Under the pieces are notes generated by a model. It was not told where the DNA came from and ran no database searches. It was given only the letters and a program-made list of their open reading frames with translations. From Candidatus Staskawiczbacteria bacterium (GTDB lineage Bacteria > Patescibacteriota > Minisyncoccia > Minisyncoccales > Staskawiczbacteraceae), in assembly GCA_963778905.1 (NCBI GenBank), contig CAVZWH010000028.1, positions 1 through 47,782 of the forward strand: a DNA stretch of 47,782 nucleotides, written 5' to 3'. Below are positions 16,782 to 40,045 of this stretch, in pieces. The position numbers were made by a program, and so were the translations under genes. Numbering within the stretch: the stretch's first letter is position 1; each line of letters opens with the position of its first letter.

Positions 16782-17168
16782 ATGCCTGTTGCAAAAAAAA
16801 CTACAATAAAAAAGAGGGCTGTAAAAAAAGACGATTCAAAGGGTAACCCAAAAGCTCCAGAAGTCGGTTTGAAGCTTAGAATAAAACTTAAAGCATACGA
16901 CCATAAAATAATTGACAATTCTGCACGCCAGATAATTGATATCGCAAACAGGTACGGAGCTGAAGTTTTGGGTCCTGTGCCTTTGCCAACAGAAATCTTA
17001 AAATATACTGTAAACAGGTCAAGTTTCATACACAAAAATGCCAGAGAGCAGTTTGAGATGAGAGTCCATAAAAGAGTAATTGACATTTTGAATCCAAACC
17101 AGGAAATTATAGAAGCGTTAAGAGATTTGAATTTGCCGTCAGGCGTTGACATTACGATAAAAATATAA
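16782..17168 (+). CDS. rpsJ: 30S ribosomal protein S10 with N-terminal extension
   Basis: [24 protein letters not shown]. Confidence 0.98.
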
Positions 17169-17287
17169 TACAATAGTTAATTATGCGATTGTTAACTTTT
17201 TTATGAATACTTTTTGATAAAAGTTCATAGAATAACAACATTGCCGGAATTCCGGGCAATTGCCCGGTTTTTCATTAAGAAACAATT

Positions 17288-17881
17288 ATGAAGTTTATTT
17301 TAGGAAAAAAAATAGGAATGTCTCAAATGTTTGATAAAAATGGCAAGCTAACGCCGGTCACTTTAATTTTGGCCGGACCTTGCTACATTTTACAAAAAAA
17401 GAATAAAGAAAAAGACGGATACGAAGCTTTGCAGGTTGGTTTCAAAAAGATAGAAAAGAAAAACAAAATCGGCAAATCAATGAAAGGAAAAGAGTACAAA
17501 AATATAAAAGAGTATCGAGGAGTAGACGAAAATTTGAAAATTGGAGACGAAATAAATGCGTCTACTTTTGTGGAAGGAGAAATTGTAAAAGTTTCCGGAA
17601 TGTCAAAAGGAAAAGGATTTCAGGGCGGAGTAAAAAGGCATGGCTTTCATGGAAGACGAGCTACTCACGGCGTAAAGCATGAGCACAGAACAATTGGTTC
17701 TACCGGTTCAAGATTCCCCCAGCACGTTATAAAAGGAAGAAAAATGCCAGGCAGAATGGGATATGAAAGAGTTTCTGTAAAAAATTTGAAAATAATGAAA
17801 GTTGATAAAGACAATAATTTATTAGTATTAAAAGGAGCTGTTCCCGGAAGAACCGGAGCTTTACTTGAAATCAAAGGATAA
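17288..17881 (+). CDS. rplC: 50S ribosomal protein L3
   Basis: GKKIGMSQ, SKGKGFQG, KMPGRMG. Confidence 0.98.
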   Translation: MKFILGKKIGMSQMFDKNGKLTPVTLILAGPCYILQKKNKEKDGYEALQVGFKKIEKKNKIGKSMKGKEYKNIKEYRGVDENLKIGDEINASTFVEGEIVKVSGMSKGKGFQGGVKRHGFHGRRATHGVKHEHRTIGSTGSRFPQHVIKGRKMPGRMGYERVSVKNLKIMKVDKDNNLLVLKGAVPGRTGALLEIKG

Positions 17882-17882
17882 G

Positions 17883-18512
17883 ATGAAATTTGATTTGTAC
17901 AATCAAAATGGAGAAGTTTCAGGAAGCGTTACTTTGCCCAAAGAAATTTTTGAGGTTGAATTCAATGCTGATTTGGTGCACCAGATTGCAGTTTCTTTAA
18001 TGGCCAACAAGCGCCAAATTTCAGCTCACGCAAAAATTAGATCAGAAGTAAGAGGCGGAGGCAAGAAACCATGGAGACAAAAGGGAACTGGACGCGCCAG
18101 GCATGGCTCAATCCGCTCTCCATTATGGAAAGGCGGAGGAGTTACTCATGGCCCAAGAAACGACAGAATTTTTGCAGTAGAAATTCCAAAGAAAATGAGA
18201 AGAAAAGCACTGCTTATGGTTTTGTCTGAAAAAGCAAAAAGTAAAAATTTAATTGTTTTAGATAAAATTGAATTGGAGAAAGGAAAAACAAAAGAAATGG
18301 CAATTTCCCTTTCAAAATTACCATGCAAAAACACCACAACTTTGATTGCCATGCCAGATTACGACAAAAAAGTATTTTTAGCAGCCAGAAATATTAAAAA
18401 AACATCAATTGAAGACGCAAGAAACTTAAATGTTTTGGAATTACTAAATCATAAATATTTATTACTGACAAAAGAAAGCATTAAAACAATTGAAAAAACA
18501 TTCGTTAAGTAA
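17883..18512 (+). CDS. rplD: 50S ribosomal protein L4
   Basis: KPWRQKGTGRARHGS; start set at MKFDL. Confidence 0.98.
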   Translation: MKFDLYNQNGEVSGSVTLPKEIFEVEFNADLVHQIAVSLMANKRQISAHAKIRSEVRGGGKKPWRQKGTGRARHGSIRSPLWKGGGVTHGPRNDRIFAVEIPKKMRRKALLMVLSEKAKSKNLIVLDKIELEKGKTKEMAISLSKLPCKNTTTLIAMPDYDKKVFLAARNIKKTSIEDARNLNVLELLNHKYLLLTKESIKTIEKTFVK

Positions 18513-18517
18513 ATAAT

Positions 18518-18949
18518 ATGGCTTTATTAGATTTCTTAAAAAAGAAAAAGGAAGCAGAGAAAGCAAAAAATGACCCAAAGGGTACTCCGAAAAAACCGGT
18601 TAAGACTTCAGTTGCAAAACCAAAAAAAGAAGAAAAAAAACCAGAGCCGGTAAAAACAAAAGCAAAGAATGTAAAATTTTCATACGAGGCGATAAAACAG
18701 CCGCATATATCTGAAAAAGCAAGCGATTTGTCTGAAAAAGATCAATATATATTTGAAGTTTCGCCAAATTACAATAAAAATGAGATAAAAAAAGCAGTTG
18801 AAGGAATTTATGGAGTGGATGTTTTGTCGGTAAATGTAATAAAGATTCCTTCTAAAAAAAGAAGATTGGGAAAAACAGAAGGTTTTAGGAAGGCTTATAA
18901 AAAAGCAGTTGTAAAAATTAAAAACGGCCAAAAAATTGAAATACTTTAA
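18518..18949 (+). CDS. rplW: 50S ribosomal protein L23 with long N-terminal extension
   Basis: PHISEKA, NKNEIKKAVE, YKKAVV. Confidence 0.96.
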   Translation: MALLDFLKKKKEAEKAKNDPKGTPKKPVKTSVAKPKKEEKKPEPVKTKAKNVKFSYEAIKQPHISEKASDLSEKDQYIFEVSPNYNKNEIKKAVEGIYGVDVLSVNVIKIPSKKRRLGKTEGFRKAYKKAVVKIKNGQKIEIL

Positions 18950-18980
18950 TAGAAATTTTAACTGAATTTATATAATTACG

Positions 18981-19023
18981 TCGCTCGGTCGAAATGAAAA
19001 TAAATTTTCATTTCTTCCTCGCT
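18981..19023. other. Intergenic hairpin element E2
   Basis: TCGCTC-GG-TC-GAAATGAAAAT/ATTTTCATTTC-TT-CC-TCGCT. Confidence 0.7.
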
Positions 19024-19030
19024 AGAAATT

Positions 19031-19858
19031 ATGAAAATATATAAACCAACAACGCCATCAAGAAGGGGAATGACTGGAATAGATTTTTCTCAGCTTACAA
19101 AAAAAGGGCCGGAGAAAAGCCTTGTAAAATACGTGAGAAGAAATGTTGGAAGATCGGCATCCACAGGGCAAATAACAGTAAGACATAAAGGCGGCGGAGT
19201 AAAAAGATTTTATAGAGTCATTGAATTTTCTCAGACAAAAATGGATTTACCGGCAAAAGTAATTGCTTTAGAATATGATCCAAACAGAACAGCTTTTATT
19301 GCTTTAATAGAATATAAAAACAAAGAAAAACAATATATTATAGCTCCGCAAAATTTGAAAGTTGGCCAGGAAATTATTTTTTCAGATTTGGCTCCGTTAA
19401 CTCCGGGAAACAGAATAAAATTAAAAAACGTGCCGGTTGGGACAGCAGTTTATAACGTTGAGCTGGAAGCTGGAAAAGGAGGCAAAATTGTAAGGTCAGC
19501 TGGAAGTTCGGCTCAGGTATTGGCTCATGACGGAGACCATATAAACTTAAAAATGCCGTCTACAGAAATTAGAAGATTTAGCGGCGAATGTTTTGCCTCA
19601 ATTGGAATGGTTTCAAATCCGGAAAACAGATTTTATACATTGGGAAAAGCTGGAAAATCAAGATTGAAAGGCAGAAGGCCGCACGTGAGAGGTTCTGCAA
19701 TGAATCCGGTTGATCATCCGCACGGCGGAGGCGAGGGCAGACAGCCAATTGGTTTGAAACATCCAAAAACTCCTTGGGGCAAGACGGCTTTGGGAGTAAA
19801 AACAAGAAACAGAAAAAAATGGTCAAACAAATTAATCATTAGTAGACGTAAAAAATAG
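19031..19858 (+). CDS. rplB: 50S ribosomal protein L2
   Basis: [23 protein letters not shown]. Confidence 0.99.
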
Positions 19859-19860
19859 AC

Positions 19861-20208
19861 ATGGCAAGAAGCTTAAAAAAAGGTCCATATATTGACGAAA
19901 AATTGCTCGCAAAGGTTTTGAATTTGAGAAAAGACGAAAAAAAGATTATCAAAACATGGGCAAGACATTCTACAATTTCTCCGGAAATGTTAGGCCACAC
20001 ATTTGGCGTACACAACGGAAAAGAATTTGTGCCGGTTTATGTTTCAGAAGATATGGTAGGTCATAAATTGGGAGAATTTGCAGCAACAACAAAATTTGTA
20101 AGACACGGAGGCAGAATGCAAAGAGAAATAGAAGCAGGAGCTGAACAAAAAGAAGCTGCAAAAGTTGAACAGGCGGCGGCACCGGCTAAAAAACCAGCCG
20201 CAAAATAA
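19861..20208 (+). CDS. rpsS: 30S ribosomal protein S19
   Basis: [16 protein letters not shown]. Confidence 0.98.
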
Positions 20209-20220
20209 TACAGAAATTTT

Positions 20221-20667
20221 ATGGAAATTAAAGCTAAATTAAGTAATTTAAGAACAGCGCCAAGGAAAGTCAGGCAGGTAGTTGATTTGGTGAGAGGAAA
20301 AAGAGTGCCAGAGGCGCAGTCTATACTTTTATTTACAGTGAATAAATCAGCAAGAAATATTTCAAAACTTTTGAATTCAGCTTTGGCTTCCGCAAAACAC
20401 AATCACCAATTAAACGAAGAAAATTTATTTATTTCAAAAATTACCGTTGACGAAGGGCCAAAACTAAAAAGATGGCATCCGATGTCAAGAGGCAGAGCAT
20501 ATCCTATTATAAAAAGAACATCGCACATTGCATTGATATTAAGCGAAATAAATCCGACTGTTAAAGAGGTAAAAGAAGAAAAAATAAAAAAATCAGTAGT
20601 AAAAAATATCAAAAAGCCATTGAAAAAAGAAGTTAAACCAAAAAGAAAAATAACAAAGAAACAATAA
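20221..20667 (+). CDS. rplV: 50S ribosomal protein L22
   Basis: APRKVRQV, VDEGP, RGRA, KRTSHI. Confidence 0.98.
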   Translation: MEIKAKLSNLRTAPRKVRQVVDLVRGKRVPEAQSILLFTVNKSARNISKLLNSALASAKHNHQLNEENLFISKITVDEGPKLKRWHPMSRGRAYPIIKRTSHIALILSEINPTVKEVKEEKIKKSVVKNIKKPLKKEVKPKRKITKKQ

Positions 20668-20668
20668 C

Positions 20669-21322
20669 ATGGCTCATAAGGTTCACCCAAAATCATTTAG
20701 AATAAAAGGAACAGAGGATTGGAATATCCGCGGTTTTTACGGCAAAAAAATGCCACAATATTTAGAAGAGGACTTTTTGATTAAGGATTTTTTAAGAAAA
20801 AAATTAGCAGACTCCTCGGTGGCAAACATAGAAATAGAGCACTCGGCAAGCAAGCTTAACATAATTATTGATACAGCAAGACCTGGTTTGATTATTGGCA
20901 GAGGCGGCGGCGGGATTGATTTGTTGAAAGCTGAAATTGAGAAAAAAATCGCAAAACAAATAAAAAATAAATCAAAAAGAGAATATAAAATAGAAATTAG
21001 AGAAATAAAAAATCCGTGGATTTCTGCTGCATTAGTTGCTCAAATGGCGGCTCAGCAAATTGAAAAAAGAATTCCATTCAGGCAGGTTTTGAAAAAATCA
21101 ATTGAAAGAGTAATGACGAACAGGGAGGCAAAAGGAATTAGAATGGAAGTTGCAGGAAGATTGAACGGAATTGAAATTGCCAGACGAGAATGGCTGGGAC
21201 AAGGCAGATTGCCAAGAAATACAATCAGGGCTGACATTGATTACGCGCAGGACGAAGCGCACTGCACTTATGGAAAAATTGGAATAAAGGTTTGGATATA
21301 TAAAGGAGATAAATTTGAATAA
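20669..21322 (+). CDS. rpsC: 30S ribosomal protein S3
   Basis: HKVHP, RPGLIIG, GRLNGIEIAR. Confidence 0.98.
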   Translation: MAHKVHPKSFRIKGTEDWNIRGFYGKKMPQYLEEDFLIKDFLRKKLADSSVANIEIEHSASKLNIIIDTARPGLIIGRGGGGIDLLKAEIEKKIAKQIKNKSKREYKIEIREIKNPWISAALVAQMAAQQIEKRIPFRQVLKKSIERVMTNREAKGIRMEVAGRLNGIEIARREWLGQGRLPRNTIRADIDYAQDEAHCTYGKIGIKVWIYKGDKFE

Positions 21323-21331
21323 CAAATTATC

Positions 21332-21760
21332 ATGGGAATATTAATGCCGAAAAAAGTAAAGCACAGAAAGTGGCACAAAGGCAGGGGAAGAAATCGTGCC
21401 GGAGTTGAAACCAGAGCAACTGAAGTTAATTTTGGCAGTTTTGGATTGAAAGCTTTGGAGGCAAAATGGTTAACGGCAAGACAATTGGAAGCAGCCAGAA
21501 GATATATAATAAGATATATGAAAAAAGGAGGAAAAATTTGGTTAAGAGTTTTCCCTGATAAGCCGGTTACTTTTAAGGGATCTGAAGTCGGAATGGGCTC
21601 GGGCAAAGGAAATGTTGACCATTATGTGTACCCAATAAAGCCGGGAAGAATTATTTTTGAAATAGACGGATTAAAAGAAGATATTTCCAGAGAAGCTTTG
21701 GAAGGAGCAGGACAAAAGTTGCCAATCAAGACAAAATTTGTTAAAAAGGATAGTATTTAA
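21332..21760 (+). CDS. rplP: 50S ribosomal protein L16
   Basis: PKKVKHRK, FPDKP, MGSGKG. Confidence 0.98.
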   Translation: MGILMPKKVKHRKWHKGRGRNRAGVETRATEVNFGSFGLKALEAKWLTARQLEAARRYIIRYMKKGGKIWLRVFPDKPVTFKGSEVGMGSGKGNVDHYVYPIKPGRIIFEIDGLKEDISREALEGAGQKLPIKTKFVKKDSI

Positions 21761-21771
21761 TACATAAAAAG

Positions 21772-21963
21772 ATGAAAGCAGCTGATTTAAGAAAAAAAGA
21801 CAAAAAGGAATTGGGAAAAACAGTTAATGAATTAAGAAAAAAACTGAGCGATCTTAGGTTTAAGTTTTCGTCTGGCAAATTAAAAAACACAAAAGAAATC
21901 AATAATTCCAAAAAAGAAATAGCAAGAATATTAACCATTTTAAGAGAAACAAAAAATGTCTAA
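21772..21963 (+). CDS. rpmC: 50S ribosomal protein L29
   Basis: KEIARILT; operon position. Confidence 0.95.
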
Positions 21964-22189
21964 AAAACTTTTACAAGGAATTGTGGTTTCAGATAAGATG
22001 CAAAAGACCGTTGTGGTTGAAGTTGAAAGAATAAAGGAACATCCAAAATATAAAAGAAGATTTAAGGTCCACAAAAAATTTAAGGCTCATGACGAAAAAG
22101 GAGAATTTCATGTGGGAGATAAAGTTGTGATAGAAGAAACATCTCCGATTTCAAAAGACAAAAATTGGATAGTAATTAAAAAGATTTAA
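21956..22189 (+). CDS. rpsQ: 30S ribosomal protein S17
   Basis: [21 protein letters not shown]. Confidence 0.97.
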
Positions 22190-22190
22190 T

Positions 22191-22559
22191 ATGATACAGC
22201 CAAGGTCAATGTTAAAAGTCGCAGATAATTCTGGAGCAAAAATTATCCAGGTTATTAATGTACCAGGAGGAACGCGCAGAAGATATGCTCAGTTGGGAGA
22301 CATTGTTGTGGCTGCGGTAAAAAAAGCTGAACCAAGAAAATTAGTCAAAAAACACGACAAAGTAAAAGCTGTAATTATAAGGCAACACAAAGAATACAAA
22401 AGAGCAGATGGTTCTTACATCAGGTTTGACGACAACGCAGCTGTAATTTTAGGCGACGGTAAAGAGCCAAAAGGCAGCAGAATTTTGGGTCCCACAGCAA
22501 AAGAATTAAAAGAAAAAGGTTTTGGCACAATTGCCATGATGGCTTCAGAGCTTTTATAA
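22191..22559 (+). CDS. rplN: 50S ribosomal protein L14
   Basis: [15 protein letters not shown]. Confidence 0.98.
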
Positions 22560-22564
22560 ACAAC

Positions 22565-22870
22565 ATGAAGATCAAAAAAGGCGACAATGTTTTAATAATA
22601 GCAGGCAAGGACAAGGGTAGAACCGCCAAGGTAATAAAAGCGCTTCCGAAAGAGCTAAAGATTTTAGTTGAAGGAATTAATTTGAAGAAAAAACACGTAA
22701 GACCAAAAAGAGAAGGAGAAAAGGGCCAGGTTGTTGCAATACCAGCTCCACTGGATATTTCCAATGTAAAAATAATTTGTCCAAAATGCGGCAAAGCAAC
22801 AAGAGTGGAATACAAGACAGAGGGAGAAGCAAAAAATAGAATTTGTAAAAAGTGTAAGCAGATAATTTAA
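22565..22870 (+). CDS. rplX: 50S ribosomal protein L24
   Basis: IKKGDNV, GKDKG, VEGIN. Confidence 0.98.
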   Translation: MKIKKGDNVLIIAGKDKGRTAKVIKALPKELKILVEGINLKKKHVRPKREGEKGQVVAIPAPLDISNVKIICPKCGKATRVEYKTEGEAKNRICKKCKQII

Positions 22871-22871
22871 C

Positions 22872-23426
22872 ATGCAAAGCTTAAAAGAAAAATATAATAA
22901 AGAGGCGGTGCCGGAGATGATGAAGAGATTTGGATTCAAAAATAAAATGGCAGTTCCCTCAATAAGGAAAGTTGTTTTGAACAGTTCTTTTGGAAAGGAT
23001 GTTGTTGGAAAATCAGCTTCAGAAAGAGAAAAAATACAAAACCTTATAATGCAGGATTTATCTTTGATTGCCGGCCAAAAAACGAATTTGGTAAAGTCAC
23101 GAAAATCAATTGCCGGATTCAAATTAAGAGAAGGTTTGGAAATTGCCGCAGTTGTTACTTTAAGAAAACAGAGAATGTGGGATTTTTTGGAGAGATTTAT
23201 TTATCTTTCTCTGCCAAGATCCAGAGATTTCAAAGGCATTGATTCAAAATCAATAGATAAAAATGGAAATTTATCAATGGGATTTAAGGAACATATTTCT
23301 TTTCCGGAAATTTTTACAGAAAAAGAAAAAACAATTTTTGGATTGGAAATAACGATTGTAACAAATGCAAAAAGCAAAGAAGAAGGATTGGAATTATACA
23401 AATTATTAGGATTTCCGATGAAATAA
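22872..23426 (+). CDS. rplE: 50S ribosomal protein L5
   Basis: [23 protein letters not shown]. Confidence 0.98.
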
Positions 23427-23427
23427 A

Positions 23428-23613
23428 ATGGCAAAGACATCACAAGAAGCAAAAGCAAAAATGAAACCAAAGTATCCTTCTAGAAAGATTAGAAGATGTT
23501 TTAAGTGCGGTAGAAGGCATGGTTTTATGAGAAAGTTCGGCCTTTGCAGAATTTGTTTTAGAGAATTAGCAAATAAAGGAGAAATTCCGGGAATTAAAAA
23601 ATCATCCTGGTAG
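23428..23613 (+). CDS. rpsN: 30S ribosomal protein S14, Zn-binding type Z
   Basis: RCFKCGR...[12 protein letters not shown]. Confidence 0.97.
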
Positions 23614-23614
23614 T

Positions 23615-23751
23615 ACGATCAGGTATTTTGGCAAAAGAGACGCAAAATTTTACCAGCGTAAAATTTTGCTCAGCTCTCGGCTTGATATTTCACTTTGGTG
23701 AAAACCATGCTATCAAGCCTCGAGGTGCTCTTTTGCCAAAATACCTTCGCT
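23615..23751. other. Intergenic multibranch hairpin element E3
   Basis: Perfect 19-bp inverted repeat AGGTATTTTGGCAAAAGAG/CTCTTTTGCCAAAATACCT followed by TCGCT; nested hairpins inside. Confidence 0.85.
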
Positions 23752-23773
23752 AAAAAATTATAAATAAAAAAAT

Positions 23774-24163
23774 ATGACAGATCCAATTACAGACATGTTA
23801 AATCAAATAAGAAATGCGCAAGCTGTTGGTAAAACAGAGGTTTTGATTCCTTTGTCAAAGATAAAAAAAGAGATAGCTAATTTGTTATTAAAGGAAGGTT
23901 TTGTCGGGGAAATTAAAAATGGAATGAAAGGAAAAATAAAAGCCCTAAAAATTACCTTAAAATATGACAACGGAGTTCCGGCAATTTCAGGATTAAAAAG
24001 AGTTTCAAAACCAGGACAGAGAATTTACGAGGGATTTTCTGAAATAAAAAGAGTTCACGGAGGATATGGAATATCAATAGTTTCAACACCAAAAGGTTTG
24101 ATGACAAATAGCCAAGCCAGAAAACAAAAACTCGGCGGAGAAGTAATCTGCCAAGTTTGGTAA
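23774..24163 (+). CDS. rpsH: 30S ribosomal protein S8
   Basis: TDPITDML, SKPGQRIY, STPKG, GGE. Confidence 0.98.
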   Translation: MTDPITDMLNQIRNAQAVGKTEVLIPLSKIKKEIANLLLKEGFVGEIKNGMKGKIKALKITLKYDNGVPAISGLKRVSKPGQRIYEGFSEIKRVHGGYGISIVSTPKGLMTNSQARKQKLGGEVICQVW

Positions 24164-24177
24164 TTAAATTAAAAATT

Positions 24178-24723
24178 ATGAGCAGAATAGGTAAAAAATT
24201 AATTGAAATTCCCCAGGGCGTGAAAGCAGAAATTTCTGAAAAAGAAATAAAAGTTTCCGGGCCCAAAGGAGAATTAAAACAATTTATACATCCTGAAATT
24301 AAAATTGAAATAAAGGATGGCAAGATTTTTGTTTCTCCAAAAACAGAGCTTTCAAAAAAAGGCAGGGGATTGTGGGGATTATACAGGGCTTTGGTTTCTA
24401 ATATGGTTGAGGGAGTAAGCAAAGGATTTGAGAAAAAATTGGAAATTGAAGGAGTTGGTTTTAAGGCAGTTGTTGACGCAGACGGATTGACATTAAACCT
24501 TGGATTTACAAATCCTGTAAAAATTAAAAAAATAGAAGGAGTTAATTTTTTGGTGGAAAAAAATGTGATTACGGTTGCGGGTGCCGACAAAGAAAGAGTT
24601 GGGCATATTGCGGCTTTAATAAGAAAACAGAAAAAAGCTGAACCATATAAAGGTAAAGGAATTAAATATCAGGGAGAAAAAATTAGAAGAAAAGAAGGTA
24701 AAAAAGTAGTAGCATCTAAATAG
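24178..24723 (+). CDS. rplF: 50S ribosomal protein L6
   Basis: MSRIGK, GPKGEL, EPYKGKGI. Confidence 0.98.
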   Translation: MSRIGKKLIEIPQGVKAEISEKEIKVSGPKGELKQFIHPEIKIEIKDGKIFVSPKTELSKKGRGLWGLYRALVSNMVEGVSKGFEKKLEIEGVGFKAVVDADGLTLNLGFTNPVKIKKIEGVNFLVEKNVITVAGADKERVGHIAALIRKQKKAEPYKGKGIKYQGEKIRRKEGKKVVASK

Positions 24724-24732
24724 AAATATATC

Positions 24733-25083
24733 ATGAGTACAAAAAACGACAAAAGAATAAGGAGACATAAGAAAATAAGAATGAACATGCATGGCACAAA
24801 AGACAGGCCAAGACTTTTTGTTTTCAGGTCAAACCAGCATATCTATGCCCAATTAGTTGACGATGACAAGGCAAAAATTTTATTGGGAGCTTCAGACAAA
24901 GATGTAAAAGCTAAAAAAGGTGAAAAGAAATCCGATGTCGCAAAAGAAGTCGGAAAATTAATAGCTAAAAAAGCAATGGAAAATAAAATTGAAAAAGTTG
25001 TTTTTGACAGAGGAGGATTTATTTTTCACGGTAGAGTAAAGGCATTGGCCGAAGGAGCAAGAGAGCAAGGATTAAAATTTTAA
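24733..25083 (+). CDS. rplR: 50S ribosomal protein L18
   Basis: RPRLFVFRSN, FDRGG, HGRVKA. Confidence 0.98.
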   Translation: MSTKNDKRIRRHKKIRMNMHGTKDRPRLFVFRSNQHIYAQLVDDDKAKILLGASDKDVKAKKGEKKSDVAKEVGKLIAKKAMENKIEKVVFDRGGFIFHGRVKALAEGAREQGLKF

Positions 25084-25101
25084 TTGAAATAAAAAAATAA
25101 C

Positions 25102-25773
25102 ATGGCAGAAGACAAAGTGGTCGTAGACCAAATTAAAAAAGAAAATACAGAACCAGCCAAGGTCGCAAAACCAGGACCCGCAAGCGGGTACCCCGGTTTT
25201 ATACCCATGCCTACCGGAGAGCAGAAAGTTGCTCCTCGCGGCGCGGGCTACGGACAAAGAAACAAAGGCTTTGGACAAAACAGAAGGCCGGGTTTTGGCA
25301 GGGCCGGATTTGGCAAAGACAGGCCGAAAGACGAATTTGAAACAAAACTTTTGGATTTGGCTCGCGTGACCAGAGTTACGGGAGGCGGAAAAAGAATGAG
25401 TTTTAGAGCAGTAGTTATTGCCGGAGACAAAAAAGGAAAAGTTGGAATTGGAATTGATAAGGGAAAAGATGTTTCTCAGGCAATTGAAAAAGCCACAAGA
25501 AGAGCTAAAAAGAATTTGATCAGTGTGGTTATTGTTGAAGGAACTATTCCCCATGAAGTTGAGGCAAAGTCAGGGCCAGCAATAATTTTATTGAAACCTC
25601 AAAAAAAAGGCAGGGGATTGGTTGCCGGCGGAGCCGTTAGAACAATTTGCGATTTGGCCGGAATTAAAAATATTTCCTCAAAAATTCTTTCAGGTTCAAA
25701 AAATAAATTAAATAACGCCAGAGCAACAATTGAAGCGTTAAAAAAATTAAAAGTGCACCAGACAACAAAATAA
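25102..25773 (+). CDS. rpsE: 30S ribosomal protein S5 with long N-terminal extension
   Basis: RVTRVTGGGK, GTIPHEV, GLVAGGAVR. Confidence 0.98.
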   Translation: MAEDKVVVDQIKKENTEPAKVAKPGPASGYPGFIPMPTGEQKVAPRGAGYGQRNKGFGQNRRPGFGRAGFGKDRPKDEFETKLLDLARVTRVTGGGKRMSFRAVVIAGDKKGKVGIGIDKGKDVSQAIEKATRRAKKNLISVVIVEGTIPHEVEAKSGPAIILLKPQKKGRGLVAGGAVRTICDLAGIKNISSKILSGSKNKLNNARATIEALKKLKVHQTTK

Positions 25774-25774
25774 C

Positions 25775-26206
25775 ATGCAGATACACGAATTAAAACCAAA
25801 ACATAAAAATAGAAGCAAAAAAAGAGTTGGCAGAGGAGGAAAAAAAGGAACTTATTCTGGAAAAGGAATAAAGGGGCAGAAATCAAGAGCAGGCAGAAAA
25901 ATGGTGCCAATTATCAGAGAATTAATTAAAAGATATCCAAAATTAAAAGGATACAGAAGTTTTGTTTTAGATGATTATTCGGCGGTTGTAAATCTTGAAA
26001 CTTTAGAAAAAATTTCAAAAGATGGAGAAACAATAAACCCGGAAAATTTGATTAAAAAAGGCATTATTAGTAGAATGAAAGGAAGAAATCCAAAAGTGAA
26101 GATTTTAGGAACCGGAAAACTTACAAAAAAATTGATTATAGAAAACTGCAAAACATCAAAAACCGCAAAAATAGCAATTGAAAAAGCCGGAGGTAAAATT
26201 TCTTAA
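25775..26206 (+). CDS. rplO: 50S ribosomal protein L15
   Basis: RVGRG, KGQKSRAG, VKILGTG. Confidence 0.97.
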   Translation: MQIHELKPKHKNRSKKRVGRGGKKGTYSGKGIKGQKSRAGRKMVPIIRELIKRYPKLKGYRSFVLDDYSAVVNLETLEKISKDGETINPENLIKKGIISRMKGRNPKVKILGTGKLTKKLIIENCKTSKTAKIAIEKAGGKIS

Positions 26207-26209
26207 ACT

Positions 26210-27487
26210 ATGTGGTACGATAAAATATTATTTCTTTTCAAAAATAAAGAATTAAGGAACAAATTCTTTTTTGTGCTTTTTCTTTTTATTGTTTTTAGAT
26301 TGGCGGCAAACATTCCAATACCTGGAATTGGAGCCGAAAATTTAAGGAAATTTTTTGACCAAAATCAGGTTTTTGGTCTTTTGAATTTGTTCACCGGCGG
26401 CGCTTTGAGTAATTTTTCCCTTGTTTTGCTTGGGCTTGGTCCTTACATTACAGCCACAATTATTTTGCAGCTTTTGACAATGATTTTTCCTGCTTTGGAA
26501 AAATTATACAAAGAAGAGGGCGAGTCGGGCAGGCAAAAATTTAATCAATATGGAAGATTGCTCACAATTCCTTTGGCCGCATTTGAGGGATATGGAATGC
26601 TGACGGTTTTTGCCCGCGAGGGAATTATCACAGGACTTTCATTGCCAGTAATGTTGTCGGCCATCGCGACAATCACAGCAGGAGCCATGTTTTTGATGTG
26701 GATTGGCGAAATTATTTCAGAACAGGGAATGGGAAACGGCATTTCTTTGTTAATTTTTGCCGGTATAGTTGCCAGAATTCCAATAAATATTTTCCAGACA
26801 TTTTCAGCATATAGCCCTTCGCAAATTCCTTCTTATGTGGCATTTTTTGTGCTTTCTATAATTATAATTGCCGGAGTGGTTTTGATTACAGAAGCTCGCA
26901 GAAATATTCCGGTCTCTTATGCAAAAAGAGTGAGGGGAATGAAAATGTATGGCGGAACTTCAACTTATCTGCCGCTAAGCGTAAACCCGGCCGGAGTTAT
27001 TCCAATTATTTTTGCGTTGTCTATACTTTTATTTCCAGGAATGATTGCCAGTTATTTTGGAACATACGCAGGACTTGTTGGAGTTGTGTCCACAAATATC
27101 GGCGCATTTTTCAATAACGTTTGGATACACGGAGTTTTATATTTTTTACTGGTTATTTTATTTACATATTTTTATACCGCGGTCACATTTGATCCAAAAA
27201 CAATTGCCGAAAACTTGCAGAAAATGGGCGGATTTGTGCCAGGAGTAAGACCGGGCAAACCAACAGCTGATTTTATGAAACATATATTAAACAGAGTTTT
27301 GTTTACCGGCGCAATATTTTTAGGATTAATAGCTGTTTTGCCGTCAATTGTTGCAGGATTAACGGGCGTTACCGGATTTACATTTTTGGTTGGAGGCACT
27401 TCGCTTTTAATCGTTGTAAGCGTTGTTTTAGACACAGTAAGGCAAATTAATGCGCAACTGCAAATGCGCGAATACGAAACTTTTTAA
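26210..27487 (+). CDS. secY: Preprotein translocase SecY
   Basis: LGLGPYITA, GNGISL, GVIPIIFA, PGVRPG, GGTSLLI. Confidence 0.99.
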   Translation: MWYDKILFLFKNKELRNKFFFVLFLFIVFRLAANIPIPGIGAENLRKFFDQNQVFGLLNLFTGGALSNFSLVLLGLGPYITATIILQLLTMIFPALEKLYKEEGESGRQKFNQYGRLLTIPLAAFEGYGMLTVFAREGIITGLSLPVMLSAIATITAGAMFLMWIGEIISEQGMGNGISLLIFAGIVARIPINIFQTFSAYSPSQIPSYVAFFVLSIIIIAGVVLITEARRNIPVSYAKRVRGMKMYGGTSTYLPLSVNPAGVIPIIFALSILLFPGMIASYFGTYAGLVGVVSTNIGAFFNNVWIHGVLYFLLVILFTYFYTAVTFDPKTIAENLQKMGGFVPGVRPGKPTADFMKHILNRVLFTGAIFLGLIAVLPSIVAGLTGVTGFTFLVGGTSLLIVVSVVLDTVRQINAQLQMREYETF

Positions 27488-28191
27488 TGGAAAAGCAAAT
27501 TATAATTTTATTTGGACCTCCTGGCGCCGGGAAAGGAACTCAGGCTGAAATTTTGGCTGATAAAACAGGATATTATCATTTTGAATCCAGTAAAATTATT
27601 GAGGCTTGTTTTGAAAATGAAAGCGACCCAAAGGGTGCCCCAAAACTTTTTGAAATAGAAGGGCAAAAATATAAAGTCCAAGATGAAAAAAAGCGATGGC
27701 AAGAAGGATTGCTGAACAGTCCGCCCTTCGTTGTTTTTTTAATGGTTGAAAAAATAAAAGAATTAGCAAAAGAAGGAAAATCAATTATTTTTTCCGGCTC
27801 TCCCAGAACTGTTTATGAAGCAGAAAAAGAAATTCCTTTATTAAAAGAGCTTTATGGCTTGGAAAATATAAAATTTATTTTATTGGAAATTACAGCCGAA
27901 ACTACAATTTTTAGAAATTCTCACAGAAGAATTTGCGAGCTAATCCGCCACTCAATTTTATTTTCCCCAGAAACAGAAAATTTAACAAAATGCCCGTTAG
28001 ACGGTTCGGATTTGGTAAAAAGAAAAGGATTAGATGACCTCCAAACAATAAAAAAAAGATTGGAAGTTTTCAAAGAGCAAACTTTTCCTGTTACAGAAAT
28101 TATTCAAAAACAAGGACTTAAATTGCACAAAGTAAACGGCGAGCAAACCGTGTCAGATGTCCACAAAGATGTTTTAGAAGCCATAAAATGA
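27487..28191 (+). CDS. adk: Adenylate kinase (divergent)
   Basis: GPPGAGKGTQ P-loop; position between secY and map; GSPR in place of the usual GFPR. Confidence 0.88.
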   Translation: MEKQIIILFGPPGAGKGTQAEILADKTGYYHFESSKIIEACFENESDPKGAPKLFEIEGQKYKVQDEKKRWQEGLLNSPPFVVFLMVEKIKELAKEGKSIIFSGSPRTVYEAEKEIPLLKELYGLENIKFILLEITAETTIFRNSHRRICELIRHSILFSPETENLTKCPLDGSDLVKRKGLDDLQTIKKRLEVFKEQTFPVTEIIQKQGLKLHKVNGEQTVSDVHKDVLEAIK

Positions 28192-28931
28192 TAAATATAA
28201 AAACACAAGAAGAAATTAAAATTATTGCCGAAGGTGGAAAAATTTTGGCTGCTGTCATAAAAAATTTAGAAAAAATGGCAAAGCCGGACGTTACCACGTT
28301 GGATTTGGACAGAGCCGCAGAGGCTCTCATTTTGTCTGTGGGAGCTACGCCCGGATTTAAGGGTTATGACGGTTTTCCTTTTTCTTTGTGCGCGTCTGTA
28401 AACGAAAATATTGTGCACGGCTTTCCTTCGGGATATGTTTTGAAAGAAGGAGATTTGTTAAAATTGGATTTGGGAGTTTTGTATAAAGGTTTTAATACAA
28501 ATTCGGCAACAACAATTGCAATTGGAAAAGTTTCTTTTGAGGCAAAAAGATTGATGAATGTCACAAAAAAATCTTTGCGATTGGGAATTAAAAAGGCAAA
28601 AGTTGGAAATACGATTGGCGACATCGGAAACACAATCGGCAGATTTGTTGAAGACCAGGGATTTGGAGTTGTGCGGGATTTGTGCGGCCACGGCATTGGA
28701 AAAAATTTGCACGAAGATCCAAAAATTCCAAATTTTGGCAAAAGAGGCGGAGGAGAAAAATTAGTTGAAGGGATGGTAATTTGCATTGAGCCGATGGTTA
28801 CGGCAGGGGACTACAATTTAAGAAAATCAGACGATGGCTACGGATACGCCACAAAAGACAACTCTTTGTCAGCCCATTTTGAACACACAATTGCAATCAC
28901 AAAATCCGGTCCAAAAATTTTAACAGAATAA
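28188..28931 (+). CDS. map: Methionine aminopeptidase type I
   Basis: VHGFP, GHGIG, HEDP, IEPM, AHFEHT. Confidence 0.97.
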   Translation: MINIKTQEEIKIIAEGGKILAAVIKNLEKMAKPDVTTLDLDRAAEALILSVGATPGFKGYDGFPFSLCASVNENIVHGFPSGYVLKEGDLLKLDLGVLYKGFNTNSATTIAIGKVSFEAKRLMNVTKKSLRLGIKKAKVGNTIGDIGNTIGRFVEDQGFGVVRDLCGHGIGKNLHEDPKIPNFGKRGGGEKLVEGMVICIEPMVTAGDYNLRKSDDGYGYATKDNSLSAHFEHTIAITKSGPKILTE

Positions 28932-28953
28932 TTTTTGTGATAGAATTAAATAT

Positions 28954-29655
28954 ATGAAACCATTAATTGCTGCGAATTGGAAAATGAATCCAGTTTTGCA
29001 AAAAGAAGCAGAAAATATTTTTGAGGGAATTAAAAAAGGCGTCAAAAATGCAACATCGGAAGTTGTTGTCTGCCCGCCGTTTATTTATTTAGAAAAATTA
29101 AAAGGGTTGGCGCTCGGAGCACAGAATATTTATTTTGAAGAAAAGGGAGCGTTTACTGGAGAAATTTCCGGAGAAATGTTGAGAGATTTGGGAGTTGAGT
29201 ATGTGATTATCGGACATTCAGAACGCAGAAAATATTTTGGTGAAACAGATGAGACTGTAAATAAAAAAATAAAAAAAGCGCTGGAATTTGGATTAAAAAT
29301 TATTTTCTGCATTGGCGAAACGGCCGAAGAAAGAGATGCCGGTAAAAAAAATGAAGTTTTGCAAAGGCAAATTCAGCAAGGGTTAAAAGACGTTGTTGAT
29401 ATTGAAAATGTTAATGTTGCTTACGAGCCGGTGTGGGCGATTGGAACTGGAAATAATTGTTCGGTTCAAGAAACAAAAGAATCAATTGATTTTATAAGAA
29501 AATTTGTAAAACAAGACACTAGAATACTTTACGGTGGAAGCGTAAAAAGCGAAAATTCCGGAGAATACATAAAATCTGCCGGGGCAAATGGATTATTGGT
29601 TGGCGGTTCGTCGCTAAACGCCGAAGAATTTGTAAAAATTGTGAAATCGGCGTAA
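28954..29655 (+). CDS. tpiA: Triosephosphate isomerase
   Basis: ANWKMN, GHSERR, AYEPVWAIGTG, YGGSV. Confidence 0.98.
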   Translation: MKPLIAANWKMNPVLQKEAENIFEGIKKGVKNATSEVVVCPPFIYLEKLKGLALGAQNIYFEEKGAFTGEISGEMLRDLGVEYVIIGHSERRKYFGETDETVNKKIKKALEFGLKIIFCIGETAEERDAGKKNEVLQRQIQQGLKDVVDIENVNVAYEPVWAIGTGNNCSVQETKESIDFIRKFVKQDTRILYGGSVKSENSGEYIKSAGANGLLVGGSSLNAEEFVKIVKSA

Positions 29656-29664
29656 GGTGTAACC

Positions 29665-30186
29665 ATGGATAATGATATATTAAACAACGGGCATTTTTTT
29701 AGCCCAAGCAAGGGAAATTTAAGTTTAGAACAAGTTATAAAAGAGATTTTCGGTTATATGCAGGAATTTCCGGAATATCAGTATGAAGTTGTGGTTGGGT
29801 GCGATTCGCCGTCATCTGACAAGCCATTTTTTCCAATTGCCATTGTGGTTTTAAGAACAGGATTTGGCGGCAGATTTTTTCTAAAAAAAATGCAATATCC
29901 GGATTCTTTTTTGAAAAGGTTTGCAAATATAAATTGGAAAAACAGAATTTTACAGGAAGTTTATTTGTCTTGCGAATTGGCATTATCTTTGAAAGAAGTT
30001 TTGGAAAAAGAAAATAAATTAGGATTAAAATATCAATTTGAATACATTCATGCTGACGTTGGCGAAATTGGCAAAACAAAAGAAATGGTAAAAGAGGTTG
30101 TTGGGTTGATAAAAAGCACTGGCTTCGAGCCGCGCATAAAACCGCAGTCATTTGCAGCAACAGTAGTTGCCGACAGATATACATAA
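29665..30186 (+). CDS. RNase H-like YkuK (DUF458) family protein
   Basis: VGCDS, RILQE, IHADVG..GKT, VADRYT. Confidence 0.85.
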   Translation: MDNDILNNGHFFSPSKGNLSLEQVIKEIFGYMQEFPEYQYEVVVGCDSPSSDKPFFPIAIVVLRTGFGGRFFLKKMQYPDSFLKRFANINWKNRILQEVYLSCELALSLKEVLEKENKLGLKYQFEYIHADVGEIGKTKEMVKEVVGLIKSTGFEPRIKPQSFAATVVADRYT

Positions 30187-30190
30187 AATT

Positions 30191-30211
30191 AACCGGCGAA
30201 AGTCGGTTTTT
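30191..30211 (+). terminator. Intrinsic terminator
   Basis: AACCGGC-GAAA-GTCGGTT followed by T residues. Confidence 0.7.
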
Positions 30212-30251
30212 AGTTGTTGCGCAAAATAATTTTTTGATGTAAAATTATAAA

Positions 30252-31900
30252 ATGACTTCAAAAGAATTACGCCAGAAGTTTTTGGATTTTTTTGAAAAAA
30301 ATGGACACACAATTGTGCCCTCTTCTTCGCTTTTGCCAACAGACCCAAGCGTGCTTTTTACAACCGCCGGAATGCAGCAATTTAAGCCATATTATTTGGG
30401 AAAGAATCTCCTTTTGGAAAAAATGTTGCTTCGTGCCAGAAATGCATAAGGACTTCCGACATTGAAGAAGTGGGCGACGAAAGACACCTGACATTTTTTG
30501 AGATGTTGGGTAATTTTAGCTTCGGCGGCTATTTTAAGGAAGAGGCGATAAAATTGGCGAAGGAATTTTTAGACGAATTGAAAATAAAAATTGACTATGT
30601 GACAGTTTTTGAGGGCGATGAAAATACGCCAAGAGACGAGGAATTGGCAAAAATTTGGGGAAAATTAGGTTTTTTGGAAAAAAATAAAAGCTTACGATTT
30701 GAAAATAAAAAAGAAAACTTTTGGGGACCTACGGGCGAGGAGGGACCATGCGGGCCAACGACAGAAATTTATTCAGGGGGCATTGAAATATGGAATATTG
30801 TTTTTAACCAATATTATTCAAAAAATGGAAAATTAGAATCCTTAAAAAATTCGGGAATTGATACTGGGATGGGATTGGAAAGATTGGCAATGGTATCGCA
30901 AAAAACAGAAACAGTTTTTGAAACTGATTTGTTAAAACCTATTATAAAATTTATTCCGGAGAAAGCTGGTTTTGATGAAAGAAAAAAAAGAATTATTGCA
31001 GACCACGCTCGCGCCATTGCATTTTTAATTTCTGATGGAGTTAAACCTTCAAACAAAGAATCAGGGTATGTTTTAAGGCGGCTGATAAGACGCATTGTTG
31101 CGTATGAATTTTTGGCAGGAACAATTTTTTTACAAGATTTATTAAAAAAAATATCCGATGACAGCAACCTTAATTGTAATGTTGTGCTAGATGAATTTTA
31201 TAATGAAAGAAATAAATTTTTAGATACGCTTCAAAAAGGAATTTTAGAATATTCAAAAATTAAAGAAATTGATGCAAAATCGGCCTTTTTTCTTTTTCAA
31301 AGTTTTGGCTTGCCGTTTGATATTTTGAAAGAACTGGACCCCGATAAAACTAAACACTTAAAACAGAAAGATTTTGAAAAAGAATTGCAAATTCACCAGG
31401 AGCTTTCAAGAACTGCTTCGGCTGGAATGTTTAAGGGAGGGTTGGCTGATGCAAGTTTGGAAACCACAAAACTGCATACCGCAGCTCATTTGATGCTGGC
31501 TGGATTAAGAAAAGTTTTGGGAAATGATGTTTATCAAAAAGGAAGCAATATCACTGCGGAAAGATTACGATTTGATTTTTCGCATAAAGAAAAGGTGACC
31601 CAAGAACAAATAAAAGATGTGGAAAATTTTGTAAATGGTATAATAAAAAAAGACTTGCCAGTTTATTTTGAAGAAATGACTTTAGAAAAAGCCAGAGAAT
31701 TAAATGCTATGGGAGTTTTTGAATCAAAATATGGAGAGAGGGTTAAGGTTTATACTATTGGTTCGGGAAATGAAATTGTAAGCAGGGAAATTTGCGGAGG
31801 GCCCCATGTGGAAAGAACAGGAATTTTGGGGCATTTCAAAATACAAAAAGAAGAAAGCTCAAGTTCAGGCGTTAGGCGCATAAAAGCAATATTAGAGTAA
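30252..31900 (+). CDS. alaS: Alanine--tRNA ligase (short form), split by a one-base frameshift at about 30398-30404
   Basis: [11 protein letters not shown] in frame 1; [38 protein letters not shown] and CGGPH in the -1 frame. Confidence 0.95.
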
Positions 31901-31912
31901 AACATTAATACC

Positions 31913-33202
31913 ATGCCAAAAAAAATATACGACATCAAACCGCCAAAAGTTGCCCATAAAGTAGAAAAAGAACTTAAAGAATTTTTGGACCTAGATAAAA
32001 ATAAAAAGACCCAAGGGGCATCCCGTCGCCATAAAAAAGAGGGCAGTTCTGTTTGGTGGCCAGTTTTAATTGGGATTTTGATAGTTGTGCTTGCGGCTGG
32101 AGTATATTTATTTTTTAATTTGCCAAAAGTTGATATTTTAATCTGGCCAAAAGTTGATACTCTAAGCTTTCAGCAAACAATAACAGCAGACAAATCTGTT
32201 GACGCAGTTGATTCTGTTAAGGGAATTGTTCCTGCCCAATATTTTGAAGTTTCTAAAACCATATCTCAAGATTTTCCGGCTACCGGAAACGCAGACAATA
32301 CAGGCGAAGCTTCGGGCACAATAACAATATATAATAAATATGATCCGCCAACGCCATTTACCTTAAAGGCCGGCACGCATTTTTTATCTGATTCCGGGAA
32401 ACTTTTTGTGGCTTTGCAGAAAATTGTGGTTCCGGCAGCTAAAAAATCCGGAAGCAAATTGACGCCGGGCTCGGTGCAAGTAAAAGTTCAAGCAGTAGAA
32501 GGCGGAGAATCGTATAATATTGCTCCCTCTAATTTTTCTGTTCCAGGGCTAAAAGGCACAACATATTATTATAGCATTTATGCTTCTTCAGACAGCGCGA
32601 TGACCGGCGGTTATGCCGGAAAAGTCAAAAAAGTTACAGATGACGATATACAAGGCGCCAGCGATACTTTGACAAAAAAAGCAACAGATGATGCCGAAAC
32701 AGATCTAAAAAACCAGGTTCCTTCTGATTCTGTTTTATTGGATAACGCAATTTCTGATAGCACCACTGACGCCTCAACTCAAACAAAATCCGGAACAGTG
32801 GCAGATAGTTTTAATTACAGCGTGACGGTTAAATCTTCCGGGTTGGCATTCAAAAAATCTGATTTAGATAATTTTGCAAAAGATTATATTGTTTCTCAAA
32901 TGCAATCCGGACAAACTTTACTAGACAACAGTTTTAAGATAAATTATTCGGCTGCAGCAGTAGACGTTTCTGGCGGAAAGGCAACGCTTAATTTGGATTT
33001 TTCATCTGGCGTTTATCAAAACATTGATAAAAATTCAGTGGCTTTATCTTTGCTTGGCGAAAATGCCAACCAAATAAACCAAACTATTAATAGCAGCTTG
33101 GGAGACCAGGTTTCTAAAATAAAAATTAATTTCTGGCCGTTTTGGGTGGTTTCAGCTCCAAACAGCCAAAACGCAGTAAACGTAGAGTTAAAATTTCAAT
33201 AG
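31913..33202 (+). CDS. Single-pass membrane protein with a baseplate-J-like extracytoplasmic region
   Basis: One TM helix near residues 48-68; ASGTITIYN, AGT.F, PGSV, YNI and AMTGG pattern; family call from memory. Confidence 0.55.
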   Translation: MPKKIYDIKPPKVAHKVEKELKEFLDLDKNKKTQGASRRHKKEGSSVWWPVLIGILIVVLAAGVYLFFNLPKVDILIWPKVDTLSFQQTITADKSVDAVDSVKGIVPAQYFEVSKTISQDFPATGNADNTGEASGTITIYNKYDPPTPFTLKAGTHFLSDSGKLFVALQKIVVPAAKKSGSKLTPGSVQVKVQAVEGGESYNIAPSNFSVPGLKGTTYYYSIYASSDSAMTGGYAGKVKKVTDDDIQGASDTLTKKATDDAETDLKNQVPSDSVLLDNAISDSTTDASTQTKSGTVADSFNYSVTVKSSGLAFKKSDLDNFAKDYIVSQMQSGQTLLDNSFKINYSAAAVDVSGGKATLNLDFSSGVYQNIDKNSVALSLLGENANQINQTINSSLGDQVSKIKINFWPFWVVSAPNSQNAVNVELKFQ

Positions 33203-37977: not shown

Positions 37978-38095
37978 GTAATTAAAAGTCGAAAAAAATA
38001 ATCAGGTGCAATCAAAGGGGTTTAACCTGCTGCCGTGTATAACGGCACCGGATTACTCGGTGGGGAGTCTGAGTTAAACCTCATTGATTAATAAA

Positions 38096-39215: not shown

Positions 39216-39296
39216 TCAGCTAAAAACTTTGGCTGACAGAAATGATTTCTCGTTGCACCGAGGAATTGTTTCGTTTGACCATAAGTTTGGGAAATT

Positions 39297-39878: not shown

Positions 39879-40045
39879 AAGAAAAATACAGAATTTATTT
39901 CAGAATACCTTTTACATGGTATTATTTGGCGAAAGTGAAAGTAGCGCGATATGAAAATGGAAAAAAAGACAAGGCATTGTTTTGTTTAGCAGTAAAGAAA
40001 TACATTGAAGCGCAAAAAATATATCAGTGGCAATTTCTGCTGTAA
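39875..40045 (+). CDS. Small phage hypothetical protein, 56 aa, not in the ORF track
   Basis: ATGA overlap with the initiator stop codon; MKEKYRIYFRIPFTWYY... Confidence 0.5.
   Translation: MKEKYRIYFRIPFTWYYLAKVKVARYENGKKDKALFCLAVKKYIEAQKIYQWQFLL

Follow-up and report, generated by a model that had tools for sequence, protein, structure and literature searches.

The DNA analyzed here is contig CAVZWH010000028.1 of a Candidatus Staskawiczbacteria assembly, taken at its full length of 47,782 nt (hereafter the window). Five of its protein-coding genes, all on the plus strand, carry a copy of a short hairpin element (in one of them a probable copy), and copies of this element are insertions with a fixed net length. 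The host genes are rpsJ (16782..17168; Pfam Ribosomal_S10, E 2e-33), rplW (18518..18949; Ribosomal_L23, E 7.8e-29), rpsE (25102..25773; Ribosomal_S5 and S5_C), adk (27487..28191; ADK, E 4.1e-15) and a gene for a 429-aa membrane-anchored protein (31913..33202; GlxA beta barrel, E 1.3e-10). The rpsJ copy (16833..16849, plus strand as all five, three mismatches to the consensus) lies in the N-terminal extension of S10 and is read as DSKGNP, and the rplW copy (18572..18588, one mismatch) lies in a Lys-rich N-terminal extension of L23 and is read as DPKGTP. The rpsE copy (25175..25194) is a 20-nt long-stem variant (stem ACCCG/CGGGT, loop CAAG) encoding GPASGYP in the N-terminal extension of S5. An adenylate kinase loop holds the adk copy (27625..27641, one mismatch, A13G), read as DPKGAP, while the copy in the 429-aa gene (32008..32024, three mismatches) precedes a membrane helix and is read as TQGAS. 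A preliminary description of this DNA had placed five elements in five protein-coding genes; the letters and coordinates of all five stretches are as first listed there, and the Pfam identities of the hosts agree. The copies are also read in different frames, as it had stated: DSKGNP, DPKGTP and DPKGAP share one sense phase, GPASGYP uses a second and TQGAS the third.

The source assembly (labelled G000), in which the window is contig C28, comprises 741,103 bp in 31 contigs, with 36.5% GC and 92.9% completeness. The consensus GACCCAAAGGGTACCCC occurs in it 7 times exactly, 19 times with at most one mismatch, 28 times with at most two and 35 times with at most three (cumulative counts), the chance expectation for exact copies being about 1e-5 by a hand estimate from base composition. 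In the window, 4 matches with at most three mismatches were observed versus 0.03 expected, and none of 100 dinucleotide shuffles reached 4. A reversed-pattern control gave no match in any of 26 genomes of the genus. Together these counts exceed chance by far, in favor of the preliminary description, which had proposed the genome-wide count as a check. Across these 26 genomes the copy number is patchy, ranging from 0 (five genomes) to 39, with a maximum density of about one copy per 22 kb. Whole-genome site sets were compiled for G000 (33 sites) and for G013 (50 sites), 83 in total; G005, with two copies, served as a copy-poor comparison, and nearly all of G005 and G013 was compared.

In its general form the element, with a length of 17 to 23 nt, reads G-RCCC-(3-nt purine loop, or a compensated stem-loop that is longer)-GGGY-R-CCCC. 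In the 17-mer, G1 is followed by RCCC at positions 2-5, which pairs with GGGY at positions 9-12 across a 3-nt, mostly purine loop; a purine at position 13 and CCCC at positions 14-17 complete the element. Pair 2-12 covaries: among 77 copies from the two genomes it is A-T in 54, G-C in 14, A-C in 8 and G-T in 1 (Fisher p 5e-9); as the copies share ancestry, these counts do not represent independent events. Longer stems are compensated as well (ACCCG-CAAG-CGGGT versus ACCCA-CAAG-TGGGT), and 23-nt forms occur in G013. The bare hairpin is weak (-4.0 kcal/mol), the 20-mer reaching -7.3 kcal/mol. Three intergenic copies in G000 lie in the loops of bidirectional intrinsic terminators (-19.6 to -26.4 kcal/mol), in which the preceding G and G1 pair with C14 and C15 and R13 is bulged. 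The flanks of the 77 copies are weakly conserved, with A at position -1 in 49 and never T, C or G at position 0, and G at +18 in 41. Judged from the sequences, the subfamilies are heritable: many copies of G013 but few of G000 have the G-C stem type, and one 20-mer recurs unchanged at three sites in two species. Rfam gave no match in the window at the gathering threshold. A literature search for the 17-mer, its complement, its RNA form and two cores found no paper; the supplementary lists of PMC3733652 may include acidobacterial or planctomycete repeat families with a bearing on novelty.

For 64 of the 83 sites, another genome provided an alignment spanning the site. For 43 of these 64, one or more comparisons showed the occupied site to exceed the empty one by the element length minus 5, and for 29 every comparison did. 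For 17-mers the difference was exactly +12 nt in 57 of 107 pairwise comparisons, each other value occurring at most four times; 23-mers gave +18 nt in four of four comparisons and 20-mers +15 nt in two of five. At the codon level, 18 nt in the occupied gene stand against two unrelated codons in relatives. Since the gain is the element length minus 5, about 5 nt of the target are lost and no target duplication is made. These empty sites, together with inserts of +12, +15 or +18 nt, all multiples of three, substantiate the earlier proposal of insertion without a break of the frame; the target duplication that had been considered is absent, and the loss of about 5 nt had not been foreseen. The targets are 50% A, versus 32% genome-wide. 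One non-coding terminator site is also +12 nt relative to G005 (a hand count on the alignment, in a single case), and this case hints that the net length may be mechanistic, beyond a filter on reading frame.

A fixed net length, the replacement of about 5 nt and the preference for A-rich targets are also what a recurrent scar would leave, that is, if the host's repair, replication or nuclease machinery, for instance by switching to a fixed template or through a Cas4-like nuclease pathway, wrote the short sequence into A-rich single-stranded gaps; new copies would then originate from this machinery and not from existing ones. In favor of this explanation, there is one consensus in all species and no transposase was found; moreover, a conserved stand-alone Cas4-like nuclease gene is present in all seven genomes with at least ten copies, though also in three that are copy-free. 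This nuclease, found in 20 of the 26 genomes, was also considered as a mobiliser and set aside, as it does not track copy number. The heritable subfamilies speak against a scar and argue for copying from copies. Furthermore, loop and target sequences show little relation (p 0.10 over all loops, 0.044 when AAA loops are excluded), which leaves a derivation of the loop from the target weak and unproven, and no template gene was found. A longer version of the element at terminators was considered as a genus-wide master copy and rejected, being specific to G000. Taking both sides together, we regard a scar as quite unlikely.

The window copies illustrate how sites differ between relatives. At the rpsJ site, G002 (locus L014) has a better-preserved copy with the G-C stem variant, G003 (L031) a more decayed one, and L022, L019 and L017 are shorter by 2-4 codons; because of the better-preserved copy at the same place in L014, the rpsJ copy with its three mismatches is best read as a decayed one. 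The site is thus occupied in three species and decaying. The rplW insertion region is hypervariable across 11 relatives, and the G007 copy (L029) is offset by 5 nt and read in another frame (RPKGQP), which suggests that the rplW copies of G000 and G007 are independent insertions. At the rpsE site the element is present in none of 18 relatives, 14 of which keep N/S-D-G-F with five fewer codons; identical copies of this 20-mer are found at C24:35671 of G000 and once in G013. None of 20 relatives has the element at the adk site, 14 being shorter by four codons, one by five, and five having an unrelated longer loop; the net gain is +12 nt versus both G013 and G005. The copy in the 429-aa gene is probably decayed too, given its three mismatches, and lies in a region that is hypervariable in seven relatives and has no definable empty site.

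Beyond the window, copies are hosted by ribosomal proteins, RpoC, FtsZ, SecA and the like. In the FtsZ gene of G000 (C7:28483), part of the 3' half is repeated directly after the copy (GGGTACCCCGGGTATCCC), so that the insertion relative to G005 amounts to 8 codons. The ribosomal operon carries copies at other places in other species: G013 has one in L6, where 16 of 16 other sequences are without the four codons, and an antisense one in L24; G002 has one in S5, at another place, besides that in S10; G019 and G007 have copies in L15, and G007 also in L23. Positions are species-specific, as 58 comparisons between the 33 sites of G000 and the 50 of G013 revealed no clear common site; the highest agreement, 14 identical columns out of 17, came from a variable region that is misaligned, and the second highest was 13 of 17. 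A glycosyltransferase site is common to G012 and G023 and empty in G000 and G013; 16 of its 17 letters are kept, in flanks that are 72-76% alike. In a further genome, a reverse-transcriptase gene (L009, G004:C36:4884-7900) is divided into an ORF at 6120-6368 and another at 6441-6830, and the opposite strand carries a hairpin copy in the gap, at 6384-6400.

Copies inside ORFs of at least 100 aa make up 78 of the 83. Relative to the host gene, 65 copies are sense, 13 antisense and 5 in short ORFs or intergenic, and all six frames are used. Most copies encode [DG]PxG[TA]P or xPxG[YH]P in loops, so that selection for a peptide motif, a Pro-x-Gly-x-Pro turn of which the nucleotide likeness is a by-product, had to be weighed. 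Against it stand the use of six frames, the non-coding copies in terminator loops, the extragenic copies in other phyla and the conservation of synonymous positions; we rejected this explanation on the six-frame use and the non-coding and extragenic copies, and consider it scarcely credible. The preliminary description had likewise called the element a nucleotide-level one, ultra-short and colonising essential genes, and the copy count, the empty sites and the multiple-of-three inserts support this; its alternative of a recognition element is less well supported. Its claim that the element lies on the sense strand holds for all five window copies and as a 5:1 bias, not as an absolute rule, given the 13 antisense copies.

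To relate this bias to replication, replichores were taken from G005, which has a clean V-shaped GC skew, and 76 sites were mapped onto it. The mapped sites comprise 48 sense/leading, 12 sense/lagging, 10 antisense/lagging, 1 antisense/leading and 5 intergenic ones. The bias follows the gene and not the fork. This speaks against a lagging-template rule like that of IS608, and on these counts a replication-strand origin of the bias was rejected. Local GC skew is uninformative here because the skew follows the coding strand. Of the 13 antisense copies, 6 have the loop AGA, which gives Ser in that orientation, versus 3 of 59 sense copies, AAA being the loop in 27 of the 59; this difference points to a peptide-level filter acting after insertion.

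An orientation that follows the gene is also what would be expected of a functional cis-signal under selection, either an mRNA hairpin acting in stability, processing or protein binding, or a DNA uptake or recombination signal, spread by benefit or by molecular drive. The sense bias of 65:13 and, in head-on genes, 12 sense copies versus 1 antisense speak for such a signal, as do the copies in terminator hairpins, the 16 of 17 letters kept at the G012/G023 site while its flanks diverged, the presence of ComEC, and a consensus that is identical across a genus with Adk identity down to 55%, and across phyla. On the other hand, five of the 26 genomes have no copy while another has 39, the density is about one per 22 kb at best, and positions differ between species. 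The gains are jumps of +12 nt rather than substitutions, old copies decay, 13 copies are antisense, and the hairpin alone, at -4.0 kcal/mol, is weak. On balance we hold a cis-signal to be unlikely.

The occurrence of the element beyond the genus proved patchy. Among 400 other Patescibacteria there were three single matches only, which is the level of the reversed control, and 16 other families of the order gave no match. A scan of species genomes for GACCC-NNN-GGGTACCCC returned at least 125 matches, mostly chance matches in GC-rich genomes, which were informative after sorting by loop: AGA was the loop in 36 among the matches listed, versus about 2 expected with random loops. Whole-genome counts (reversed control in brackets) were 230 (3) in a Candidatus Solibacter metagenome-assembled genome (MAG), 94 (1) in a Planctomycetaceae MAG, 7 (0) and 4 (0) in two Ignavibacteria MAGs and 6 (1) in a Terracidiphilus MAG. 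In Solibacter, pair 2-12 is A-T in 74, G-C in 24, A-C in 2 and G-T in 0 among 100 copies listed (hand count), the same alternation as in the genus. A background level in 120 other Acidobacteriota means that the distribution is patchy there too.

In the Solibacter and Planctomycetaceae MAGs the copies are extragenic and sit at the tips of longer palindromes, with flanks that vary from genome to genome and also within a genome. The Planctomycetaceae MAG has palindromic elements of 125-175 nt, whose inverted ends of ~45 nt contain the 17-mer. Both MAGs contain inverted doublets 64-117 nt apart, with ordinary genes between pairs, and one Solibacter locus shows a 12-nt tandem of positions 1-12. It is new that one 17-mer with one covariation pattern is a high-copy extragenic repeat in these two MAGs. 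Beyond what the preliminary description could show, the element is thus confined neither to genes nor to the present lineage; in other phyla it is an extragenic repeat resembling the repetitive extragenic palindromic (REP) sequences.

Some loci of other phyla have a composite structure. At L042, L122, L135 and L144 (Bacteroidota/Ignavibacteria MAG loci), the loop is AGA or GGA and the 17-mer belongs to a conserved arrangement consisting of ...GATTGGAT, the 17-mer followed by C, a short hairpin and GGAATGACA, which has no Rfam match; three further Ignavibacteria loci have a hairpin and ATT ahead of the 17-mer. A search of 31 loci from other phyla against Rfam (E<=1 or <=0.1) returned sub-threshold miRNA hairpin models only. 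Two provirus records of 63-65% GC contain the exact 17-mer and gave no blastn match to G000, G013 or G005. One of the two, labelled G042 (21,254 bp, 65% GC), has, at 5063, 8398, 8866 and 11845, four copies of a longer repeat in which the exact 17-mer is preceded by GAATCCAGG and followed by GAATCCAG...

The explanation that we favor, with some reservation, is that of a miniature non-coding mobile hairpin, REP-like in large genomes and a tolerated loop insertion in a gene-dense one. The element would reach new sites as a discrete unit, by copying itself or by being copied; with each event the whole element would come in and about 5 nt of A-rich target would go, so that a 17-mer would add 12 nt. 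Neither strand nor frame probably matters at the insertion step. With about 90% of the genome coding, the survivors of purifying selection would be copies that extend a surface loop or a disordered tail by a tolerated tetrapeptide rich in Pro and Gly, or copies in terminator loops; after insertion, copies decay. In the large genomes of other phyla, the element is found outside genes, where it forms the tips of longer palindromes and occurs in inverted doublets, as REP/REPIN sequences do. We infer that the element is selfish, that its movement involves a single strand in folded form and that cutting and joining are the work of a trans-acting enzyme; the enzyme could be a conserved host enzyme or be supplied by another replicon.

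Several points weigh against this explanation. A filter acting on peptides alone would hardly be expected to give a sense bias as strong as 5:1, and an RNA-level role could account for it; the retention of 16 of 17 letters at the G012/G023 site despite diverged flanks could reflect constraint; and the covariation counts for pair 2-12 carry the shared descent mentioned above. Contigs from sequencing runs revealed no usable population-level presence/absence polymorphism; in run X2, one contig crosses the rpsE site with 33 gap letters. Y1_Tnp (PF01797) was not found in G000, G019 and G021, which have 10-28 copies each (genus pattern), TnpB had no match in G000, and reverse transcriptase was not found in the copy-rich G013 and G019. 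In five carrier genomes of other phyla, the motif was at none of the 12 Y1 loci examined among 37. Finally, we know of no element as short as 17 nt that has been shown to transpose, and to our knowledge a fixed target loss of about 5 nt without duplication fits no known transposition chemistry.

The check for a co-occurring transposase that the preliminary description had proposed thus found none. A RAYT/IS200 link was rejected for G000, which has no Y1, and was not seen at the Y1 loci examined elsewhere; conversely, G010 has seven Y1_Tnp matches and no element copy. Off-target homing by a reverse transcriptase, as of a diversity-generating retroelement, was rejected because the number of reverse transcriptases (one in G000, three each in the copy-free G014, G015 and G017) bears no relation to copy number. 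A screen for genes present in G000 and G013 without a counterpart in G005 yielded 70 ORFs, 20 of them annotated. Neither T5orf172 (3 of 26 genomes) nor the RNaseH_like PF04308 gene of the window (15 of 26 genomes, missing from G022 with its 13 copies) tracks copy number. The T5orf172-domain genes of G023:C3 and G013:C11 contain one or two in-frame TAA codons, and two Y1_Tnp genes of G023:C3/C6 an in-frame TGA; these may be broken copies or cases of recoding.

REP sequences are short imperfect palindromes of 20-40 nt with a conserved GTAG or CGTC at one end, and are associated with RAYT transposases (PMC3116915, PMC3733652); the latter source also mentions REPs inside genes in several species, and presents a REP superfamily (CGTC) without a dedicated transposase. 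The element resembles REP/REPIN-RAYT systems in being a short hairpin with a compensated, covarying stem (4 bp with a 3-nt loop, and 5-6-bp variants) and in its patchy, lineage-specific copy number. It differs in its length of 17-23 nt, at or below the lower bound of the 20-40 nt of REPs, and in that neither GTAG nor CGTC appears in the flank profile of the 77 copies. There is no cognate Y1 in G000 and the motif is at none of the 12 of 37 Y1 loci elsewhere; on the tag and on the RAYT, then, the element falls outside the REP-RAYT group. Extragenic doublets like those of REP/REPIN were seen in the Solibacter and Planctomycetaceae MAGs, whereas in G000 and G013 78 of 83 copies are inside ORFs. 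Unlike in REPs, one core sequence is common to several phyla.

In its effect on proteins, the element seems closest to the Rickettsia palindromic elements, which are palindromic repeats inserted in genes (PMC3733652). Both are palindromic repeats inserted in frame into functional genes of a small, AT-rich genome. Rickettsia palindromic elements measure about 100-150 bp, belong to families confined to Rickettsia and add tens of residues. The present element, by contrast, is 17-23 nt long, adds 4-6 residues and also occurs in free-living, large genomes.

In kind, the closest analogue may be the small dispersed repeats (SDR) of Nostoc/Anabaena. SDR, which Elhai and colleagues reportedly described in 2008, are said to be hairpin repeats of 21-27 nt with compensatory changes, whose mobility was inferred from occupied versus empty orthologous sites; they are also said to be often nested in other repeats and to have no known mobiliser. 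They differ from the present element in sequence and phylum, and are not known as systematic in-frame insertions in essential genes or as cross-phylum repeats; relative to SDR, the rule of element length minus 5 is new. AT-rich organelle genomes contain GC-rich palindromic clusters (the GC clusters of yeast mitochondria, the hairpins of Volvox and Allomyces), some in coding sequence and with no encoded enzyme. These too are GC-rich hairpins in AT-rich genomes, but they are organellar, longer and unrelated in sequence.

The uptake sequences of Neisseria (DUS) and Pasteurellaceae (USS) occur about once per kb, are stable within families and arise by substitution without length change. Like the element, they are over-represented short motifs, lineage-specific and found in genes in preferred frames and in terminators. 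The density of the element is at least 30-fold lower, its distribution patchy (0-39 copies per ~0.75 Mb in the genus) and its gains +12 nt. [quoted passage not shown] Single-strand transposition of the IS200/IS605 type, with its lagging-template orientation and TnpA, does not match an orientation that follows the gene and a G000 genome that has no Y1.

If mobile, the element would set a new lower size limit for mobile DNA. It would also offer a route by which conserved essential proteins gain bursts of short insertions in their loops, a point to consider when indels are interpreted in ribosomal-protein phylogenies of candidate-phyla bacteria. The rule of the whole element in and about 5 bases out is a mechanistic signature outside the described transposition pathways, and makes the search for the enzyme testable. 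A bolder possibility, which we consider doubtful, is that one 17-nt bulged hairpin is a gene-less replicator that has passed between phyla, among Acidobacteriota, Planctomycetota, Ignavibacteria and one Patescibacteria genus, by using an enzyme conserved to such a degree that the sequence of the element can stay unchanged. It would then be the smallest mobile DNA known and a generator of 4-residue loop insertions in a gene-dense genome of the symbiont type. As 400 other Patescibacteria are at background level, its occurrence in a single genus may point to an exchange of DNA with a carrier lineage, which could be the physical host. The element may also serve to trace DNA passing between an uncultivated lineage of episymbionts and the organisms around it. 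The identity of the core across phyla would provide tractable carriers, if cultivated relatives of Solibacter or the Planctomycetaceae hold the element.

Other repeats were observed in the same genome. G000 contains ten near-identical elements of 765-766 bp with inverted ends (GGCTCTAGACTAGC...), a single 238-aa ORF and AT-rich flanking duplications of 7-8 bp, examples outside the window being C6:6028-6792, C10:5703-6467, and C21:4535-5299 and 7754-8518. From these features they appear to be copies of a small, active-looking insertion sequence, probably resembling the IS1595 family. Seven further elements of 126-134 nt share inverted ends of about 16 nt (ACCCCGTTAGAAGTC...) and have largely different interiors. 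They lie at C7:15837-15970, at C14:23924-24054, 40101-40226, 48542-48673 and 49246-49377, at C22:14737-14865 and at C24:11430-11558. Most start right after a stop codon and have flank repeats of 2-3 bp, and a 60-nt short form is found near C7:41080. A link between the hairpin and these palindromic elements of about 130 nt, which also begin with ACCCC, was dropped, as it comprises 4-5 letters only.

The window region from about 38000 to 47782 has a GC content of 40-41% and encodes a Phage_rep_O-like protein, a ParB-N6/N4 methylase fusion, an rve integrase on the minus strand, a peptidoglycan-binding protein and an AAA_14 ATPase. The region probably represents an integrated mobile element and is free of hairpin copies. 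Alanyl-tRNA synthetase is represented by two ORFs, 30252-30449 (65 aa, N-terminal) and 30470-31900 (476 aa, GTG start), and is thus split or frameshifted. Upstream of the ribosomal operon, at 10160-11236, the window encodes a second adenylate-kinase-like protein of 358 aa, which has weak matches in relatives too.

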